Source: Shigella phage phi2457T
DNA length: 50,219 nucleotides
Strand: one strand, 5' to 3'
Sequence record: MH917278
Positions 7,680-39,565 of this stretch are shown in pieces; position 1 is the stretch's first letter, and the number at the start of each line of letters is the position of its first letter. A program made the translations under genes and the position numbers. The notes below the pieces were generated by a model. That model did not search any database. It was not told where the DNA came from and saw only the letters and a list, made by a program, of their open reading frames with translations.

Positions 7680-7735
7680 GTCGGTGGGGTGATTTGATAT
7701 AGTTACCTCATCGACAACGAAGAGAGAAAATCGAA

Positions 7736-9448: not shown

Positions 9449-9471
9449 AACCCGCTACGGCGGGTTTTTTT
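9449..9471 (+). terminator. rho-independent terminator
   Basis: Hairpin cccgctacggcggg followed by TTTTTTT. Confidence 0.65.
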
Positions 9472-9490
9472 ATGCCTGCAATATGGTAAA

Positions 9491-9509
9491 ATAGCACTAA
9501 ATGTTAAAC
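9491..9509 (+). promoter_or_regulatory. conserved intergenic element copy upstream of terminase small subunit
   Basis: atagcactaaatgttaaac preceded by ctgcaatatgg -10-like. Confidence 0.45.
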
Positions 9510-16177: not shown

Positions 16178-16196
16178 CACAAAAACACTTTGACGC

Positions 16197-16215
16197 TTTA
16201 ACAAAAAGTGCTATT
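16197..16215 (-). promoter_or_regulatory. conserved intergenic element copy, inverted relative to local transcription
   Basis: tttaacaaaaagtgctatt (reverse complement AATAGCACTTTTTGTTAAA) upstream of major capsid gene. Confidence 0.4.
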
Positions 16216-16220
16216 ATTGA

Positions 16221-16248
16221 AGCCGTGAACATAATCACGGCTTTTTTT
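16221..16248 (+). terminator. rho-independent terminator
   Basis: Hairpin agccgtga/tcacggct followed by TTTTTTT. Confidence 0.6.
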
Positions 16249-16269
16249 ATTAACTAAGGAGAAGTAATC

Positions 16270-17229
16270 ATGACTACTAAAAAATTTGATGAAGCAGATA
16301 AAAGCAATATTGAAATGTACCTGATCCAAGCTGGCGTAAAACAGGATGCAGCAGCAACTATGGGTATCTGGACCGCTCAGGAGCTACACCGCATCAAGAG
16401 CCAGTCTTACGAAGAGGACTACCCGGCAGGATCTGCTCTCCGTGTATTCCCGGTTACAACCGATCTCTCTCCGACCGACAAGACGTTTGAGTACATGACC
16501 TTTGATAAGGTTGGTACTGCGCAGATTATCGCTGACTATACCGATGACCTGCCTCTGGTTGATGCGCTTGGCACTTCTGAGTTCGGAAAGGTGTTCCGCT
16601 TGGGTAACGCGTACCTGATTTCAATCGACGAAATCAAAGCAGGTCAGGCAACTGGTCGACCGCTGTCAACCCGCAAGGCAAGTGCGTGTCAGCTAGCGCA
16701 TGACCAACTGGTTAACCGTCTGGTGTTCAAAGGCTCCGCACCGCACAAGATCGTGTCTGTGTTCAACCATCCGAACATCACCAAAATTACCTCAGGTAAG
16801 TGGATTGATGGAGTTAGCCAAAAACCAGAAACGGCTGAAGCTGAACTAACTCAGGCCATCGAAACCATCGAGACGATTACTCGCGGACAGCACCGAGCAA
16901 CCAATATTCTGATCCCGCCGTCCATGCGTAAGGTTTTGGCTATTCGTATGCCTGAAACCACTATGTCTTATCTGGACTATTTCAAGTCTCAGAATGCTGG
17001 TATCGAAATTGACTCTATCGCAGAACTTGAAGATATCGATGGCGCTGGAACTAAAGGCGTGCTGGTGTACGAAAAGAATCCGATGAATATGTCCATCGAG
17101 ATCCCGGAAGCATTTAACATGCTGCCAGCACAGCCGAAAGATCTGCACTTCAAAGTGCCTTGCACCTCCAAGTGTACTGGCCTTACAATTTATCGTCCGA
17201 TGACTATTGTCTTAATCACTGGCGTGTAA
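16270..17229 (+). CDS. major capsid protein
   Basis: 319 aa; strong SD aaggagaa; position after scaffold/decoration genes and before connector genes; flanked by terminators. Confidence 0.75.
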   Translation: MTTKKFDEADKSNIEMYLIQAGVKQDAAATMGIWTAQELHRIKSQSYEEDYPAGSALRVFPVTTDLSPTDKTFEYMTFDKVGTAQIIADYTDDLPLVDALGTSEFGKVFRLGNAYLISIDEIKAGQATGRPLSTRKASACQLAHDQLVNRLVFKGSAPHKIVSVFNHPNITKITSGKWIDGVSQKPETAEAELTQAIETIETITRGQHRATNILIPPSMRKVLAIRMPETTMSYLDYFKSQNAGIEIDSIAELEDIDGAGTKGVLVYEKNPMNMSIEIPEAFNMLPAQPKDLHFKVPCTSKCTGLTIYRPMTIVLITGV

Positions 17230-17236
17230 TATTATA

Positions 17237-17263
17237 GGGACTAACTTAGTTGGTCCCTTTTTT
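17237..17263 (+). terminator. rho-independent terminator
   Basis: Hairpin gggacta...tggtccc followed by TTTTTT. Confidence 0.55.
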
Positions 17264-17278
17264 ATTGGAGAAATCAAA

Positions 17279-17566
17279 ATGGCTAAAGAAAAAACTGTTG
17301 TTATCGTAAACGTTGGTGTGGCGCTTCAGATGTTCCGTCTTGAAGATGGCTCATTCGCAAAGGTTCTCCCGGATGAAGAGGTGACACTCCCAGCATCCGC
17401 ACTTGAATTGCCTGGGCTGCGTTGCTTGATTGCTCGCGAAGAAATCGAAGTAAAAGACGACAGTGCCACCAACCGGAAAATCCGCGCAGAGATGGCTAAA
17501 CTTAAAAAGCCTGATCCGTGGGATAGTAAAAGTGTTAAAGAACTTGAGGACGGCGGCGAATATTAA
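17279..17566 (+). CDS. hypothetical protein (95 aa), terminator-flanked
   Basis: ORF track; SD ggagaaa; terminators on both sides. Confidence 0.4.
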   Translation: MAKEKTVVIVNVGVALQMFRLEDGSFAKVLPDEEVTLPASALELPGLRCLIAREEIEVKDDSATNRKIRAEMAKLKKPDPWDSKSVKELEDGGEY

Positions 17567-17570
17567 TCAT

Positions 17571-17598
17571 CAAGGCGCTCATGTAGCGCCTTTTTTTT
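17571..17598 (+). terminator. rho-independent terminator
   Basis: Hairpin ggcgct/agcgcc followed by TTTTTTTT. Confidence 0.6.
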
Positions 17599-17611
17599 GT
17601 GGAGTTTGGTT

Positions 17612-18022
17612 ATGAATCAAGAAACTTTAATTTCAGTTGTTGAGCAAGTGCGAAAGCTGGTCCCTGCACTTCGCAAAGTTCCAGATGAAACTCTTTATGC
17701 ATGGGTTGAAATGGCTGAGCTATTCGTATGCCATAAGACCTTCAAAGACGCATACGTCAAAGCGCTTGCTCTTTATGCTTTACATCTTGCTTTCCTTGAC
17801 GGAGCACTAAAAGGTGAAGATGAAGATCTGGAATCTTACTCACGACGCGTTACGTCTTTCTCACTGAGCGGTGAGTTTAGTCAGACTTTTGGTGAGGTTA
17901 CGAAAAACCAGTCAGGAAACACAATGCTTTCGACGCCGTGGGGTAAGATGTTTGAACAACTTAAAGCGCGACGCCGTGGTAGGTTCGCATTAATGACCGG
18001 ACTCCGTGGAGGATGCCACTAA
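17612..18022 (+). CDS. head-tail connector / head completion protein (putative)
   Basis: Position after major capsid; internal ATG with SD; identity by synteny. Confidence 0.45.
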   Translation: MNQETLISVVEQVRKLVPALRKVPDETLYAWVEMAELFVCHKTFKDAYVKALALYALHLAFLDGALKGEDEDLESYSRRVTSFSLSGEFSQTFGEVTKNQSGNTMLSTPWGKMFEQLKARRRGRFALMTGLRGGCH

Positions 18023-18393
18023 TGAACTACTCACAAATTGAAAGAATGGCTCGCAAAGGCGTGGCTTTCTTCACAGATCCATCAAGACCTATGAACCTGA
18101 TAAGGGAAGGTGAATATGGATACGATGAAAATGGATTCGAGATTCCACCGATGGAACAGGTTATTCCAATATCTGGAGCCACTCGCAGACCAAATGCTCG
18201 GGAGGTTGACGGAGAAACAATACGCGCCTCCGACCTTTTGGGGATCTTCAATAATGATCATGAAATAAACGAAGGCGACTATATAGAGATTGACGGTGTT
18301 CGTCATGTTGTAGTTGACGCTCGTCCGGTTCAGGCGTCATTAGAACCTGTCGCCTATCGTCCAGTATTAAGGAGGGTATCAGTCGGTGGCTAA
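18022..18393 (+). CDS. head-tail joining protein (putative)
   Basis: TAATG coupling to upstream gene; synteny. Confidence 0.45.
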   Translation: MNYSQIERMARKGVAFFTDPSRPMNLIREGEYGYDENGFEIPPMEQVIPISGATRRPNAREVDGETIRASDLLGIFNNDHEINEGDYIEIDGVRHVVVDARPVQASLEPVAYRPVLRRVSVGG

Positions 18394-18829
18394 TTATCAG
18401 ATTCGTAGATTTCAAGGTGAGATTGATGCGTGGATTAAGGCAGCAGAGAGCACTCTTGAGCACGCTATTGAGATATTTGTAAGAGATGTGCATAGCGCTC
18501 TTGTTAGCCGATCTCCTGTCGATACTGGGCGTTTTAAGGGTAACTGGCAGATAACTTTTAACGAAATACCCAGCTACGCATTAAACCGATATGATAAAAC
18601 TGGCGGTGTAGTACGCGGTGAGGAACAGGCAAAGACTTATGGCATGTTCAGCCGTGGAGGTGCGATAACCTCGGTTCACTTTTCAAACATGTTGATTTAT
18701 GCAAACGCACTTGAATACGGTCACTCACAGCAAGCGCCAAGCGGCGTAGTAGGATTGGTGGCGTTGAGGCTGCGATCGTATATGTCTGGTGCAATAAAGC
18801 AAGCAAGGAGACAACAAAATGCACTATGA
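18386..18829 (+). CDS. head-tail adaptor, HK97 gp10-like (putative)
   Basis: Sequence ...DTGRFKGNWQ... resembles HK97 gp10-family neck proteins; synteny. Confidence 0.5.
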   Translation: MANYQIRRFQGEIDAWIKAAESTLEHAIEIFVRDVHSALVSRSPVDTGRFKGNWQITFNEIPSYALNRYDKTGGVVRGEEQAKTYGMFSRGGAITSVHFSNMLIYANALEYGHSQQAPSGVVGLVALRLRSYMSGAIKQARRQQNAL

Positions 18830-19217
18830 GTTATCAGCGGCGGCTAGAGCCGCATTTCTGTCAAAGTACAGAGATTTTCCTCACTACATGGAAAACCGCA
18901 ACTTCACACCACCGAAGGATGGCGGTATGTGGCTTAGATTTAATTACATAGAAGGCGATACACGTTATCTATCCATTGACAGAAAATGCAAGTCTTACAT
19001 TGCTATCGTGCAAATTGGAGTGGTTTTCCCTCCAGGATCAGGGGTTGACGAGGCAAGATTGAAAGCAAAAGAGATTGCTGATTTTTTCAAAGATGGTAAA
19101 ATGCTTAACGTTGGTTATATTTTCGAGGGTGCAATCGTGCATCAAATTGTTAAACACGAGAGCGGGTGGATGATTCCGGTTCGCTTTACAGTACGAGTAG
19201 ACACAAAGGAGACTTAA
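18819..19217 (+). CDS. tail completion / tail terminator protein (putative)
   Basis: Position immediately before major tail protein. Confidence 0.45.
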   Translation: MHYELSAAARAAFLSKYRDFPHYMENRNFTPPKDGGMWLRFNYIEGDTRYLSIDRKCKSYIAIVQIGVVFPPGSGVDEARLKAKEIADFFKDGKMLNVGYIFEGAIVHQIVKHESGWMIPVRFTVRVDTKET

Positions 19218-19218
19218 T

Positions 19219-19887
19219 ATGCACTTACCAAATGGCGCGCAAATTTTCGTGGAAACCTCTCGCGGAGAAGAGATCGAGGCGACCGCTGTCACTAACGCAA
19301 AAAATCCTGTTGCTACAGTTGCATCTAAGGGCGACTTGGCGAAAGGTGATTACGTTATTGTAACTCAGTCAACTTGGGCTAAGATGGTTAGTCGAGTACT
19401 AATTGTTACTGACGCCCAAGAAACAAGCATTACTCTTGCTGGGATTGACACTACTGATGCTCTTGTTTTCCCGGCTGGCGGTACAATGAGCTTTGCAAAA
19501 ATTACTGGCTGGACTGAGATCCCTTGCGTACAGGAGATTGGTCAGGACGGCGGCGAGCAGCAGTATTACACTTATCAGTGTTTGTCTGACGATAAAGAGC
19601 AGCAGATCCCGACGTTTAAGTCTGCAATCTCGCTAACGTACACCTTCGCGCACGAATTTGATAACCCTATCTATCCTATTCTGCGTAAGCTGGATTCTTC
19701 TGGTCAGGTAACTGCGGTTCGGATGTATGTTCCAAAAGCGAACGAGATGCGCATGTGGGCTGGTATCTTGTCTTTTAACGACATTCCATCTACGCAAGTA
19801 AACGAAATGGAAACGGTACAACTCGCCGTATCCCTGAAGGGTGATTTCACTTTCGTTTCATCCGCTCTGGCATCACCTGGTGCCTAA
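19219..19887 (+). CDS. major tail protein
   Basis: 222 aa directly upstream of the G/G-T chaperone pair and tape measure; followed by hairpin. Confidence 0.6.
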   Translation: MHLPNGAQIFVETSRGEEIEATAVTNAKNPVATVASKGDLAKGDYVIVTQSTWAKMVSRVLIVTDAQETSITLAGIDTTDALVFPAGGTMSFAKITGWTEIPCVQEIGQDGGEQQYYTYQCLSDDKEQQIPTFKSAISLTYTFAHEFDNPIYPILRKLDSSGQVTAVRMYVPKANEMRMWAGILSFNDIPSTQVNEMETVQLAVSLKGDFTFVSSALASPGA

Positions 19888-19898
19888 ATCATATCCAC

Positions 19899-19922
19899 AG
19901 GGGGCTTGCGCCCCCTTATTCA
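19899..19922 (+). terminator. terminator-like hairpin
   Basis: agggggcttgcgccccct followed by a weak T-rich tract. Confidence 0.4.
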
Positions 19923-19960
19923 TTTCTGTAAAATCATCGTATCAAGTTTGCACTATTCTC

Positions 19961-19980
19961 TTTTAACAAAAAGTGCCATT
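19961..19980 (-). promoter_or_regulatory. conserved intergenic element copy, inverted relative to local transcription
   Basis: ttttaacaaaaagtgccatt upstream of tail chaperone gene. Confidence 0.4.
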
Positions 19981-23916: not shown

Positions 23917-23942
23917 AAAGCCCGCCTTGCGCGGGTTTTTTT
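23917..23942 (+). terminator. rho-independent terminator followed by -10-like element
   Basis: Hairpin cccgccttgcgcggg + T7; downstream gtagctgtagaatgg. Confidence 0.6.
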
Positions 23943-23983
23943 GTAGCTGTAGAATGGTTGCAGGCAAACAAGAGGAAAAATCA

Positions 23984-26097: not shown

Positions 26098-26122
26098 AAC
26101 CCGCCTTGCGCGGGTTTTTTTT
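26098..26122 (+). terminator. rho-independent terminator followed by TGTATAAT
   Basis: Same hairpin cccgccttgcgcggg as at 23921, + T8, then cgcctgtataatg. Confidence 0.6.
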
Positions 26123-26170
26123 CGCCTGTATAATGAGTCCACCGATAAATAGCACAAAAAGGTAAGCATC

Positions 26171-30837: not shown

Positions 30838-30915
30838 TTGTATGTCCTCGTCGTTAGTGTGATTTCATTGTATGTCGCATTTACTTTTATTGCAATAGCG
30901 CGATTACAATTTTTT

Positions 30916-31259
30916 CGTGTAACAGGTGTCTATTTTTGTAACCGAAACGGGTGTTACAAAATCAACCCCATCCGACCGCAGGTGGATATGATAAAAACTC
31001 TATATAATATATATAGATAGATAATATTTAATTTTAGCTTTATATATATAATTATTGTTGTGTAACAGTTGTATATCGTGTAACAGGTGATTTGATTGAT
31101 TCGTCAAATTTCTATCATATTTGTTCAAAATATAATCAATCTTGATTCTATTCATGGATATCTTTGTATTTCTAAGAAAAAGCGGTTACAAGTATTACGC
31201 AATAGACACAACATAAAAACAGGATTAAGTAATTGATTCCGTTGGCGCTGGTTGTAACT
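30916..31259. repeat. iteron-like cluster of TGTAAC/GTTACA repeats (candidate origin or regulatory hub)
   Basis: cgtgtaacaggtg at 30916 and 31077; tgtaacag 31061; ttgtaacc 30937; gtgttacaa 30951; ggttacaag 31184; gttgtaact 31251; includes AT-rich tract 30996-31057. Confidence 0.5.
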
Positions 31260-31363
31260 TGAGCGATATAGACACGCAATTACACACCAATTACATGTAT
31301 TCGATTGACTAAACGCTGTTAATGGCTATAATGGATTCATCGTAAACGAGGGAGATAAACGAA

Positions 31364-33612: not shown

Positions 33613-33640
33613 AAAATCCCCGCAATGCGGGGATTTTATC
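33613..33640. terminator. bidirectional terminator
   Basis: Hairpin atccccgcaatgcggggat flanked by A-run and T-run, between convergent genes. Confidence 0.65.
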
Positions 33641-35423
33641 ATTTGGACTTCAACATTTTTATCTCTTCTTGTAACTCTTCAACTTTCTTTATTGTATCCT
33701 GTAAAGCTCTCATAGTGTCAAGCAATAAAGGAGTTGTATCAAGCTCAAGCCTTTCAACTTTTGGCCCGTTTAGCTCGTGGCTCTCATACATCCTTCTCTT
33801 AACATATAGATTGTCGATCTCTTCTATCTCCTGAGCTATGACACCTCGCCTTACCCTTTCTTGCTCATCATCGTTAAAGATAAAGTTCCTAAATCTCATT
33901 GATTTTATGTTGTTGTATGCAATGCTTGATTCATCATCCTTTATGCTGTGCTTTATATTTCTGTCAGATGCCGGAATCTGTTGGAAACTTCCAGCCCCTT
34001 GCGGTCCAGCGTAAGATATTTGCCCTGAAGCCATAAACCTGAAATGCATTTGCAAACCAATATTGCCTGCCCCATCCCTATCTTGAGCACCTACTGATAT
34101 TTGTGCCCTGGGCCATTCAGGATTGCCCGTAGTCATCATGCCAAAAGCTACGCCGCCAACATACCCTTGACCCCTTGTATCACACGATCCAGCAATAAGT
34201 GATTGATAGTTTTCAGCGCCACTATCGGCAGTGTAAGCATTACCCTGGAAGCATGAAGCAGACCACATCTGGTTGTAACCCATAGATGTTTTCTGGCATA
34301 AAAACTGATTAGCTCTAAATCTATTGTTAGTCTCGAAGTAGTTTGCCCCTTCATAAAATAATAAAGCCCCAGCATAACCATTATCGCTATGTTCTTTTCT
34401 GACGTAAATCCCTGGTGTGGATATTCCATCAGGTGACATAATCATCAATGATGACAATATGGACTGACTACCCCAATTAGAACCGTTCCATGAGTTCCTT
34501 CCTGCCCCTATAGCTCCCGTGGTGTTAACAGTAAGAAAGTTAACAGCATCATTTTCACCTAACCCAATATTTTTTCTTGACTCTTTTTTATCATCAAGAC
34601 CAGCTAGATTGCCATCCTTAGTTAAAAGATTTTCAGCATTGATGCTGTTAGCTGCGTCTTTTGCTTCTTGAGCACTTACCGCAGCAGCATCTTTTGAGCT
34701 TACCGCTTCGTCACGCGCTGCCTGAGCGTCGTTTTTTGCAGAGGTAGCCGTTTGTGCTGCCGTTTGAGCGTCATTAACGTAACCTGACAGATCGCCTTTC
34801 GCGTCATTAATTGCCTGAATCGCCGCCGCTTCTTCTGAGTCAATGTGAGTGATGGATGAATTTTCTTTTTGCTGCACATCGGTTATAGCCTGATCCTTAG
34901 CCGCATTGATGCTACCGACAGCACCGTCAACAATCTGTTGCGTCTGATTCTTGATTGAGTTAGTTTCATCGCGTGCAGCGTTGGCTGCGTCACGCGCTAA
35001 TTCAGCCTGATTTTGCGCAGCTTGAGAATCAGATTTCGCCTGATTCACATCAGCAACTATTTGCTCAAGTTTATTCATATCAAGCTGATTTATCAGGTCT
35101 ATAGCTTCCGCAATCTCAGTCTCTTTGCTTTGATAGTATCGCAGAGTCTCGGCGACGTTTTGAGCTAATCCGTTAACGGTTAGAGAGTCATTAAGTAGGA
35201 TCACATACTTACCGTCATCGGCAGTCTGACCATCAGTAGAGATAGCCTTTAATTCTGTATCACTAACGATATCGCTAATCACAGCCAGCTTAATTGGTTG
35301 CTCAAGGAACACGATAGTTGCACCTACGCGAATAAGAGCAAGCTGATCTTTCCATTTTGTATCGGTTCCGTGAACCGTTCCGTCTGCATCCATTGATGCA
35401 GTACCGCGTCTGTATAAAGCCAT
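33639..35423 (-). CDS. side tail fibre with C-terminal S74-type intramolecular chaperone domain
   Basis: 594 aa; Ala/Gln/Asp-rich coiled-coil repeats; C-terminal region SDRNIKHSIKDDESSIAYNNIKSMRFRNFIFND...RRGVIAQEIEEID matches the auto-cleaving chaperone-of-endosialidase domain. Confidence 0.75.
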   Translation of the reverse strand: MALYRRGTASMDADGTVHGTDTKWKDQLALIRVGATIVFLEQPIKLAVISDIVSDTELKAISTDGQTADDGKYVILLNDSLTVNGLAQNVAETLRYYQSKETEIAEAIDLINQLDMNKLEQIVADVNQAKSDSQAAQNQAELARDAANAARDETNSIKNQTQQIVDGAVGSINAAKDQAITDVQQKENSSITHIDSEEAAAIQAINDAKGDLSGYVNDAQTAAQTATSAKNDAQAARDEAVSSKDAAAVSAQEAKDAANSINAENLLTKDGNLAGLDDKKESRKNIGLGENDAVNFLTVNTTGAIGAGRNSWNGSNWGSQSILSSLMIMSPDGISTPGIYVRKEHSDNGYAGALLFYEGANYFETNNRFRANQFLCQKTSMGYNQMWSASCFQGNAYTADSGAENYQSLIAGSCDTRGQGYVGGVAFGMMTTGNPEWPRAQISVGAQDRDGAGNIGLQMHFRFMASGQISYAGPQGAGSFQQIPASDRNIKHSIKDDESSIAYNNIKSMRFRNFIFNDDEQERVRRGVIAQEIEEIDNLYVKRRMYESHELNGPKVERLELDTTPLLLDTMRALQDTIKKVEELQEEIKMLKSK

Positions 35424-35443: not shown

Positions 35444-35462
35444 ATAGCACGAATTGCTAAAC
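35444..35462 (+). promoter_or_regulatory. conserved intergenic element copy within an extended inverted repeat
   Basis: atagcacgaattgctaaac followed 27 nt later by inverted half gtgctat; lies between two minus-strand genes. Confidence 0.4.
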
Positions 35463-35499
35463 ACAGATTTTATCATTGTGCTATTGGTCTTGCAACGGG

Positions 35500-35526
35500 C
35501 AATAAAAAACCGCCCGAAGGCGGTTA
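35500..35526 (-). terminator. rho-independent terminator (minus strand)
   Basis: Hairpin accgcccgaaggcggt with A6 on plus strand (T6 on minus) after the primase-like gene. Confidence 0.6.
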
Positions 35527-36519: not shown

Positions 36520-36972
36520 TTAACTAAAAATGCTATTCGTCGTTCCAATATCTTCCTTCTTCACGACTCGCATAAACTTCTTGTTTTTGCATCGCTTCTC
36601 AAGGCACTTTCCGTTCCCATCAAACTTCAGATCGAATCGTAGCCATGCCGCCCGGAATCCTTTGCAACCCTGTCGGCGGTAAGCACGATGCGCTGCTTCA
36701 GCGCCTTGCCATGAAATCATATTGCGATCTTTCCAGCCTTGCACCGTCTGATTGCTAACTTTTAGAGCCTTTGCGCAGGCCGCAGGACCACCGTAATATT
36801 CGATAAGAGCATCCAATCGCGCTCTCAGTCCTGCGCGCGTTTCTTCTTTATGGATATAAAATCCGCAGCGCTGGCGAGGCTTTTTATCTTTACCGCGTCG
36901 TGTTCCGTTGTTACCATTGATGTGACGTTTATCGATTTCACCAGTAGACTCTGCGATACGTTTCATATTCAT
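36520..36972 (-). CDS. HTH DNA-binding protein (Cro/YdaS-like)
   Basis: Internal ATG with SD caggag; segment CAKALKVSNQTVQGWKDRNMIS looks like a helix-turn-helix. Confidence 0.45.
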   Translation of the reverse strand: MNMKRIAESTGEIDKRHINGNNGTRRGKDKKPRQRCGFYIHKEETRAGLRARLDALIEYYGGPAACAKALKVSNQTVQGWKDRNMISWQGAEAAHRAYRRQGCKGFRAAWLRFDLKFDGNGKCLEKRCKNKKFMRVVKKEDIGTTNSIFS

Positions 36973-36985
36973 CTTAATTCTCCTG

Positions 36986-37005
36986 TAGCACTTTTTGCTA
37001 AAAAC
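36986..37005 (+). promoter_or_regulatory. conserved intergenic element copy upstream of helicase
   Basis: tagcactttttgctaaaaac in divergent region. Confidence 0.45.
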
Positions 37006-37066
37006 GTTTACTGTATGCCGTGTATTATATCGTAAACGATACAACGATTCAAAGGATTAAATAGCC

Positions 37067-39513: not shown

Positions 39514-39565
39514 ATGCCGGAATGGATTCTGGCATTATTATCTCACCGAAACGAGAGGATTAAAA

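Follow-up and report, generated by a model that had tools for sequence, protein, structure and literature searches.

The genome of Shigella phage phi2457T (sequence record MH917278; the whole stretch of 50,219 nucleotides that was analysed is called the window below) contains a short repeated element, two copies of which stand in inverted orientation inside the late structural operon. Judged by its consensus match and its geometry relative to promoters, the element is most likely a marbox, a putative site of the host regulators MarA, SoxS and Rob. Copy 1 takes up the spacer of a conserved promoter of the major capsid gene, and copy 2 belongs to a predicted leftward promoter that lies back to back with the promoter of the tail genes. 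Whether a host factor of the MarA/SoxS/Rob type restrains the late promoters for capsid and tail through these two copies appears evenly balanced, and this is the reading developed here.

The window is a complete or near-complete genome of a T1-like phage (Tunavirus, 50.2 kb), with 99.7% identity to Shigella phage Sfin-2 and about 88% identity to T1 over the region tested. Copy 1 reads TTTAACAAAAAGTGCTAT on the plus strand at 16197-16214 and is flanked, according to the annotation of relatives, by the decoration protein and major capsid protein genes. Copy 2 reads TTTAACAAAAAGTGCCAT on the plus strand at 19962-19979, with the tail tube gene on one side and the tail assembly chaperone and tape measure genes on the other. 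Both are the reverse complement of ATAGCAC-N4-TGYTAAA, the form that is found upstream of plus-strand genes. A first-pass annotation of this DNA, made from the letters alone, had placed two reversed copies near 16.2 and 19.9 kb, each next to a terminator hairpin. Both observations hold, as the copies lie at the positions just given and adjoin terminator-like hairpins of the plus strand at 16219-16244 and 19899-19916, respectively.

The repeated element and its usual setting

The marbox, 20 bp long and asymmetric, is bound by host regulators of the AraC family, namely MarA, SoxS and Rob, and in Klebsiella and Salmonella also RamA. Its published consensus is AYnGCACnnWnnRYYAAAY. There are 15 matches to the element family in the window at three or fewer mismatches, where 0.13 are expected, while the degenerate marbox consensus has 19 perfect matches against 0.08 expected from shuffles. 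Copies 1 and 2 are both among the perfect matches, and copy 1 is a perfect match to AYNGCACNNWNNRYYAAA. About 20 copies are in forward orientation, with a 20-bp box, 18 bp and then a -10 hexamer, and with no -35 at a usable distance. Counted from the 18-mer, the usual setting is exactly 20 nt followed by a -10 such as TATAGT, TATTAT or TACAAT, frequently with TGn in front of it. For 15 of the 19 perfect boxes (copy 2 included, in its leftward reading), [TC]AnnnT follows at 19-21 nt. The micF promoter of E. coli K-12, marbox(20)-N18-TAGAAT-N7-start, has a spacing identical to that of the phage promoters. Its register puts GCAC at -47 to -44, and in a cryo-electron microscopy complex Rob contacts G-47 and A-45 at micF. 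Class II marbox promoters are defined by a forward box that overlaps the -35 and is centred near -41; this arrangement is not found at copy 1, where the corresponding hexamer is TATGAC.

Sorted by setting, the 19 perfect boxes comprise 15 that are class II-like, one that is class I-like and three (at 9491, 16197 and 35444) that lie on sigma70 promoters of structural genes, namely those of terminase, capsid and tail fibre, respectively. The class I-like box, at 103-120, is backward and stands 15 bp 5' of the -35 in a rightward promoter, TTGTCA-17-TAGAAT, which is class I geometry; the distance from the backward box to the -35 is also 15 bp at fpr, and the marbox of the E. coli mar promoter is 16 bp from the -35. 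This box (ATAGCACGTTTTGCTAAA) differs very little in sequence from the marbox of E. coli mar (ATGCCACGTTTTGCTAAA). A degenerate fourth box on a structural-gene promoter, at 26149, follows the promoter of tail-fibre gene J.

The first-pass annotation described the copies elsewhere as co-oriented with the genes downstream. This does not hold for all of them. The copy at 35444-35461 is inverted relative to the minus-strand tail-fibre gene at 33639-35423, the product of which has a Peptidase_S74 domain; read on the minus strand, the region 35444-35510 consists of a terminator, TTGCAA-17-TAAAAT, 5 nt, the backward marbox, AAGGAG and the tail-fibre ATG. The box at 103-120 is inverted relative to its rightward promoter (136-164), and that at 36985-37002 is backward in the leader of the leftward pir gene. 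Late promoters carry boxes of either orientation, for instance a forward one at 9491 and a backward one at 19962. The common feature of the structural-gene boxes is their position on a late promoter, not orientation as such, and the orientation of each is set locally by what the box is fused to.

Two other readings of the letters were rejected. The TTGCTA or TTGTTA of the box cannot serve as a -35, being 22 bp from the -10, which is too far. A sigma54 promoter, suggested by letters like TGGCAC and TTGC, fails when inspected by eye, as the GG-to-GC distance is 2 bp short and a sigma70 -10 is conserved. No box was found in phages outside the family that have a related capsid protein. A phmmer search of all six-frame open reading frames with MarA, SoxS and the N-terminal domain of Rob (query sequences entered by hand) gave no phage homologue of the AraC family below E = 0.4, and Pfam scans of 20 open reading frames found no HTH_18 or AraC domain. 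Since no such homologue was detected in the phage, the binding protein would come from the host.

Promoters at the two inverted copies

Conservation around copy 1 was assessed in 63 loci surrounding homologues of the capsid gene, with capsid protein identity ranging from 98% to 57%; boxes were counted in the 62 genomes that have upstream sequence (window included), and information content was calculated from 42 distinct relatives. Of the 62 genomes, 61 carry the box, always in minus orientation and 61-80 nt ahead of the capsid start, and the single exception has a 1-nt deletion inside the box. It averages 1.75 bits per column compared to 0.63-0.66 in the flanks, and in these alignments the conservation of the box is far above what a promoter spacer would need. 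The box lies within the capsid promoter (P_MCP), which in the window has the layout AAAAA...TTGACG-16-TGcTATTAT. In all 61 genomes TTGnnn stands one base before the box while its last three bases vary, and TAnnnT is in register in 57 of 61, represented by five different hexamers, with three more genomes shifted by 1 nt. Copy 1 supplies the TG (from GTGC) and the first three bases of the -10, overlapping the TATTAT at 16212-17 by 3 bp. The box is located between a -35 and a -10, as in core promoters of the pbpG or rob type, and both hexamers are conserved. The A-tract further upstream would, from its position, be the proximal UP subsite of P_MCP.

The predicted start of P_MCP, near 16224, falls inside the 5' arm of the terminator hairpin. 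The full hairpin is predicted at -15 kcal/mol, while a transcript beginning at 16224 retains only -5.3. From this start inside the hairpin arm and the weak truncated fold we infer that P_MCP transcripts escape termination, while transcripts from upstream would end at the hairpin. The succession of -10 and hairpin is conserved in most relatives, and other genera show the layout of -10, 3 nt and terminator hairpin again at the junction between terL and portal, there with a forward box. At that junction, many non-Tunavirus relatives have a forward marbox, 6 nt, TATAAT, 3 nt, a terminator hairpin and a ribosome-binding site, which once more puts the box within a core promoter (loci L016, L019-L021, L024, L035-L037, L039, L045, L046 and L062, about 4.3-4.8 kb 5' of the capsid gene); there is no box at this junction in the window.

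Copy 2 is found, always in minus orientation, in 32 genomes, and there it points into a predicted leftward promoter. Exactly 20 nt from the box in every case is a leftward -10 (19936-41 in the window) of the form TAnnnT (32/32), which occurs as nine different hexamers and is preceded by TGn in 28 of 32. The box averages 1.9 bits per column, compared to 0.86 in the 20-nt spacer. The box belongs to a segment of about 40 nt that is absent from the TLS-like, Rogunavirus and Klebsiella-phage lineages. Relatives without the box also have no leftward -10, so that the module comes and goes as a whole, with the rightward promoter staying in place. Box, spacer and -10 at site 2 are predicted to form one unit, a complete leftward class II promoter, and copy 2 probably fires leftward.

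The rightward promoter, of the tail chaperone and tape measure genes, is built into the terminator that follows the tail tube gene. All relatives retain it, box or no box, with TTGCGC in the terminator loop and the -10 17 bp further on. Its -10 is TAAAAT, TAGAAT or TACAAT in all 32 genomes with a box, and TAATAT or CATAAT in relatives without one. Copy 2, which is a forward box for the leftward promoter, corresponds to about +22 to +39 of the rightward transcript. The leftward start is predicted near 19929, inside the rightward -10, and the rightward start near 19941. Since the two opposed -10 elements abut and each predicted start lies within the -10 of the other, simultaneous occupancy of the two promoters should be impossible. 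Some candidates at site 2 were rejected: a rightward promoter using the box as its spacer has no TTG upstream and TAnnnT in 0 of 32 genomes; the tail leader folds no better than shuffled sequences (z = +0.9); and the GCACT/AGTGC pairing of the leader in the window is not conserved in T1. The features of both sites are listed in Table 1, along with a third inverted copy.

Table 1. Coordinates of promoter, terminator and marbox features at sites 1 and 2 and at the third inverted copy.
Feature	Position	Strand	Remarks
A-tract	16181..16185	+	About -43 to -39 of P_MCP; highest-information stretch of the upstream flank
-35 TTGACG of P_MCP	16190..16195	+	Promoter scan: TTGACG-16-TATTAT with TG, 10/12 matches
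Copy 1, backward marbox (ATAGCACTTTTTGTTAAA on minus strand)	16197..16214	-	Perfect consensus match; fills P_MCP spacer
Extended -10 TGcTATTAT of P_MCP	16209..16217	+	TAnnnT in register 57/61
Intrinsic terminator hairpin and T-run	16219..16249	+	Begins 2-4 nt after the P_MCP -10
Terminator hairpin after tail tube gene	19899..19916	+	Loop and 3' arm carry -35 TTGCGC (19906-19911)
-10 TAAAAT of rightward tail chaperone/tape measure promoter	19929..19934	+	TTGCGC-17-TAAAAT
Extended -10 TGaTACGAT of predicted leftward class II-type promoter	19936..19944	-	TAnnnT 32/32
Copy 2, marbox (ATGGCACTTTTTGTTAAA on minus strand)	19962..19979	-	Perfect consensus match; minus orientation in 32 genomes
Third inverted copy, backward marbox	35444..35461	+	5 nt after the -10 of leftward sigma70 promoter TTGCAA-17-TAAAAT

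The two sites differ in their opposite-strand promoter elements. The hexamer found 20 nt away from copy 1, TATGAC in the window, lacks the final T in 59 of 61 genomes, and its conserved TA is accounted for by the stop codon of the gene upstream. As the final T is present in only 2 of 61, compared to a TAnnnT in 32 of 32 at site 2, there is no conserved antisense promoter at site 1, and a leftward promoter there was rejected. The proposal of the first-pass annotation that the inverted copies could drive antisense transcripts is therefore plausible at 19.9 kb, on comparative evidence, and dropped at 16.2 kb. Regulatory RNA antisense to the 3' ends of the decoration and tail tube messages could even be the main product of the inverted copies, and the complete, conserved leftward promoter at site 2, with a transcript that would run through the complement of the terminator into the tail tube gene, fits such a role. 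We consider it improbable as the main function, because the leftward -10 of site 1 is not conserved, neither site has a match to any Rfam family, the region that would be covered is a coding 3' end plus terminator with no independent conservation signal, and the site 2 module is missing altogether from several genera.

The comparison of orientation among related genomes also bears on two other suggestions made at the outset. Copy 1 is always on the minus strand (61/61), as is copy 2 (32/32). Of the idea of an orientation-independent protein-binding site, the binding site is supported and the orientation-independence falls, the site being asymmetric and its orientation fixed. Recombination scars are rejected, with 1.75-1.9 bits per column in the boxes compared to 0.6-0.9 in the flanks, and with capsid identity down to 57%. 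That the copies are chance matches or recombination remnants devoid of function has nothing in its favour except their unusual orientation; given a position and orientation that are invariant in 61 and 32 genomes across this range of capsid divergence, and an information content two to three times that of the flanks, its probability is close to nil.

A possible brake on the late promoters

The sequences show the match to the consensus and the geometry of the boxes, as well as their conservation and promoter elements on either strand; the identity of the binding protein, its negative effect, the start sites and a later lifting of repression are inferred, in the following scheme. The forward boxes, about 20 in number, would be activator-dependent class II promoters of non-structural genes, while copies 1 and 2 lie on strong, self-sufficient sigma70 promoters of virion genes. 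Copy 1 would be an operator, such that a regulator bound to the spacer and extended -10 of P_MCP competes with RNA polymerase or traps it. At copy 2, polymerase recruited leftward would exclude rightward initiation of tail transcription, as footprint and melted region coincide, and a short antisense transcript that enters the terminator would arise incidentally. A single factor could in this way switch on the early promoters and hold late structural transcription. Being a pre-existing host factor, it would give the correct order at time zero, with early genes on and late genes held. The capsid and tail chaperone promoters of phage Jk06, and the TLS-like phages at site 2, have plain consensus promoters and no box. 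Since relatives without boxes keep such promoters, the boxes would modulate, as an added layer of control, and are not needed for activity. Jk06 (Rogunavirus, locus L065) has 14 perfect marboxes, mostly in the class II position.

Precedents for repression from such a position exist in the host. Schneiders and Levy (2004, 2006) reportedly described marbox repression from inside the core promoter at rob, purA and hdeA, and the box at rob is backward and lies between the hexamers. At pbpG, a marbox in the promoter spacer leads to direct repression (PMC12052159).

Several points weigh against a brake of this kind. All start sites at the two phage sites are predicted. The sign of regulation is not readable from sequence: the sigma28 promoter flgBP2 is activated by MarA sitting between its -35 and -10, and yadG by a reverse box over the -35. 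In unstressed cells Rob is largely sequestered, and MarA and SoxS are low. Copy 2 is missing from several genera, hence dispensable. The lifting of repression, for which the regulator might be titrated by the roughly 25 boxes carried by each replicated genome, is speculative. The hol and dam promoters of T1 are activated by the phage regulator Pir, which represses the promoter of its own gene; binding of Pir to the box would fit this pattern as well.

An opposite sign, in which the bound factor stimulates the late promoters, or else a simpler case in which RNA polymerase alone uses the sequence as spacer and extended -10, has a low probability in our estimate. Activation by MarA from within a promoter spacer is possible through distortion of the base pairing beside its site, and the GTGCTAT end of copy 1 does provide the TGnTAT of the capsid -10. 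Promoters that depend on an activator usually have defects in their core elements, however, while P_MCP already has a near-consensus -35, a TG, a -10 and the A-tract, and box-free homologous promoters exist in Jk06. The case of flgBP2 is different, this being a sigma28-dependent promoter with its box 3 bp further upstream. At site 2 the box is downstream of the rightward start, and a spacer used by polymerase alone would not require all 18 box positions to be conserved.

As the main alternative, the element could be the operator of a phage-encoded regulator, Pir or another, which would act as an activator at about -41 and as a repressor at boxes that overlap a promoter or come after one. The gene pir lies at 36523-36975 on the minus strand, and the modelled protein has a single Cro-like helix-turn-helix domain that is not MarA-like. 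The hol and dam promoters, activated by Pir in T1, carry a box in the class II position (42506 and 39495), and the Pir-repressed pir promoter has one in its leader. The box also has a partial dyad, TAGCA-N5-TGCTA, and Cro-like domains are of the dyad-binding kind; Pir is conserved across the family. Yet the degeneracy of the boxes follows the asymmetric marbox (invariant G4, Y14 and a one-sided AAA tail) and not dyad symmetry, and the spacings in both the class II and the class I arrangement agree with micF, fpr and mar to the base pair. Pir represses recE as well, the consensus promoter of which has no box, and the hol promoter is active in phage-free cells. About 20 early promoters without a -35 must fire before any phage protein exists, and with a phage-made factor the late promoters would open first and shut later, which is the wrong order. 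A phage-encoded regulator of the element is accordingly rated unlikely.

Restraint of the capsid and tail promoters by a host factor may be part of a wider dependence. It is possible, although we hold this tentatively and with some doubt, that T1-like phages (Drexlerviridae) run their whole transcription programme on host MarA, SoxS, Rob and RamA. Class II marbox promoters would then start the early, replication and lysis genes, and marboxes would hold the capsid, tail, terminase and fibre promoters, with release by titration (again about 25 boxes per replicated genome) or by another inactivation of the regulator. To our knowledge, T1-like phages encode no RNA polymerase or sigma factor. They include common laboratory contaminants and therapy candidates. 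They have been described as having very few recognisable promoters and an unexplained 21-nt repeat (PMC11447400). The marbox reading would account for most T1-like phage promoters at once, and the two inverted copies would be the informative exceptions, marking where the same factor acts negatively on capsid and tail. Should the wider dependence be real, the timing and yield of the phage would depend on the mar/sox/rob state of the host, a widespread family of enterobacterial phages would be tied to regulators that are overexpressed in multidrug-resistant clinical isolates, and antibiotic-resistance state and phage development would interact directly.

Neighbouring motifs and comparison with known systems

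The pir/helicase region (36985-37052) has the same back-to-back design as site 2, here serving two real genes. The stretch 36973-37052 is bidirectional, with a box-dependent rightward helicase promoter and a consensus leftward pir promoter, TTGAAT-17-TATAAT. The helicase -10 (37023-28) and the pir -10 (37024-29) share TATTATA, and the starts are about 18 bp apart. The box in the pir leader sits directly before the pir ribosome-binding site. A second conserved motif, CATCGA(A/C)AACGA(G), occurs just after the -10, at about +1 to +15 in the majority of class II-type promoters (such as at 1102-1113, 7707-7720 and 39542-39555, and also at 31339-31348 and 37030-37041), and a related inverted repeat, ATCGTAAACGAT, is found in the pir/helicase region and after the recE -10. 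This motif, CATCGAAAACGA, is a candidate Pir site or, alternatively, a signal of the 5' untranslated region. The repeats GTGTAACAGGTG were considered as a shared site of the Pir-regulated promoters and rejected, being confined to 30.9-31.1 kb. They lie in a large AT-rich non-coding gap before recE (30840-31360), which has three of them (at 30917, 31060 and 31078) and more GTAACA/TGTTAC, and which could be an origin or a regulatory array.

Composites of terminator and promoter like that of site 2 are present at 9449-9483 (a variant), 19899-19934, 23921-23956 and 26098-26135, all in the late region. In each the terminator loop gives the -35 (TTGCGC), and the T-run is followed by cTGTAnAAT. The forward marbox at 9491 begins about 8 nt after the -10 of a composite, and the degenerate one at 26149 also follows a composite. 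GC-rich hairpins occur near the marboxes at 1794, 2815, 3593, 4298, 5845, 6365, 7660, 36519, 40518, 44270, 46932, 47447 and 48798. They are downstream of the marbox, either between box and -10 or enclosing the -10, and their stems differ yet stay complementary (e.g. GGGGTA/TACCCC, AGGCCA/TGGCCT). Probably these are terminators of the preceding unit that overlap the promoter.

The element appears to be of a known kind, in a setting for which no prior description was found in the literature searched. Nothing was found there that links the T1 repeats to marboxes or Rob, although a mention in Roberts et al. 2004 (the T1 genome) or in Schneiders and Levy 2006 is possible. The nearest published observation is from phage TLS, which has unexplained 21-nt direct repeats, aaATAGCACnnnTTGnTAAAA (PMC11447400). 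They are the same element, and DR7 (negative strand, 15044-15024, by terminator T35) is the homologue of site 1. The TLS paper, from 2024, states that the repeats follow the direction of transcription and proposes stoperators, enhancer sites or UP elements; it makes no comment on the orientation of DR7 and does not mention marboxes (PMC11447400). Like the stoperators of mycobacteriophage L5, the boxes are short asymmetric sites scattered in a phage genome, some of them downstream of promoters. L5 stoperators bind a phage repressor and have one orientation within transcribed regions, whereas most phage copies here are at -41, and those on late promoters occur in both orientations, so that the boxes do not fit the L5 type.

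Site 2 resembles bidirectional bacterial promoters, which according to Warman et al. 2021 are said to have shared or adjacent -10 elements, in that opposed -10s fall in one melted region (19929-34/19936-41, and likewise 37023-28/37024-29 at pir/helicase). It differs in that one arm would be activator-dependent and the other not, which would make it a switch, and in that the predicted starts are about 12 bp apart, not 18. The roughly 20 ordinary copies and the leftward promoter of site 2, for all of which binding is putative, are like class II promoters within the mar/sox/rob regulon such as micF in their asymmetric consensus, their forward box over the -35 position and the 18 bp to the -10. 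Unlike the regulon, they belong to the genome of a virulent phage, at about 240 times chance density and with nearly all matches perfect, and unlike the micF class the leftward promoter of site 2 has no gene to express. Site 1 is like pbpG, with the box between the -35 and -10 of a sigma70 promoter and with repression, in the phage, as the suggested outcome. In contrast to promoters of the pbpG and rob type, the box of site 1 itself contributes the TG and three bases of the -10, and the promoter that it is part of drives the most abundant protein of the virion.

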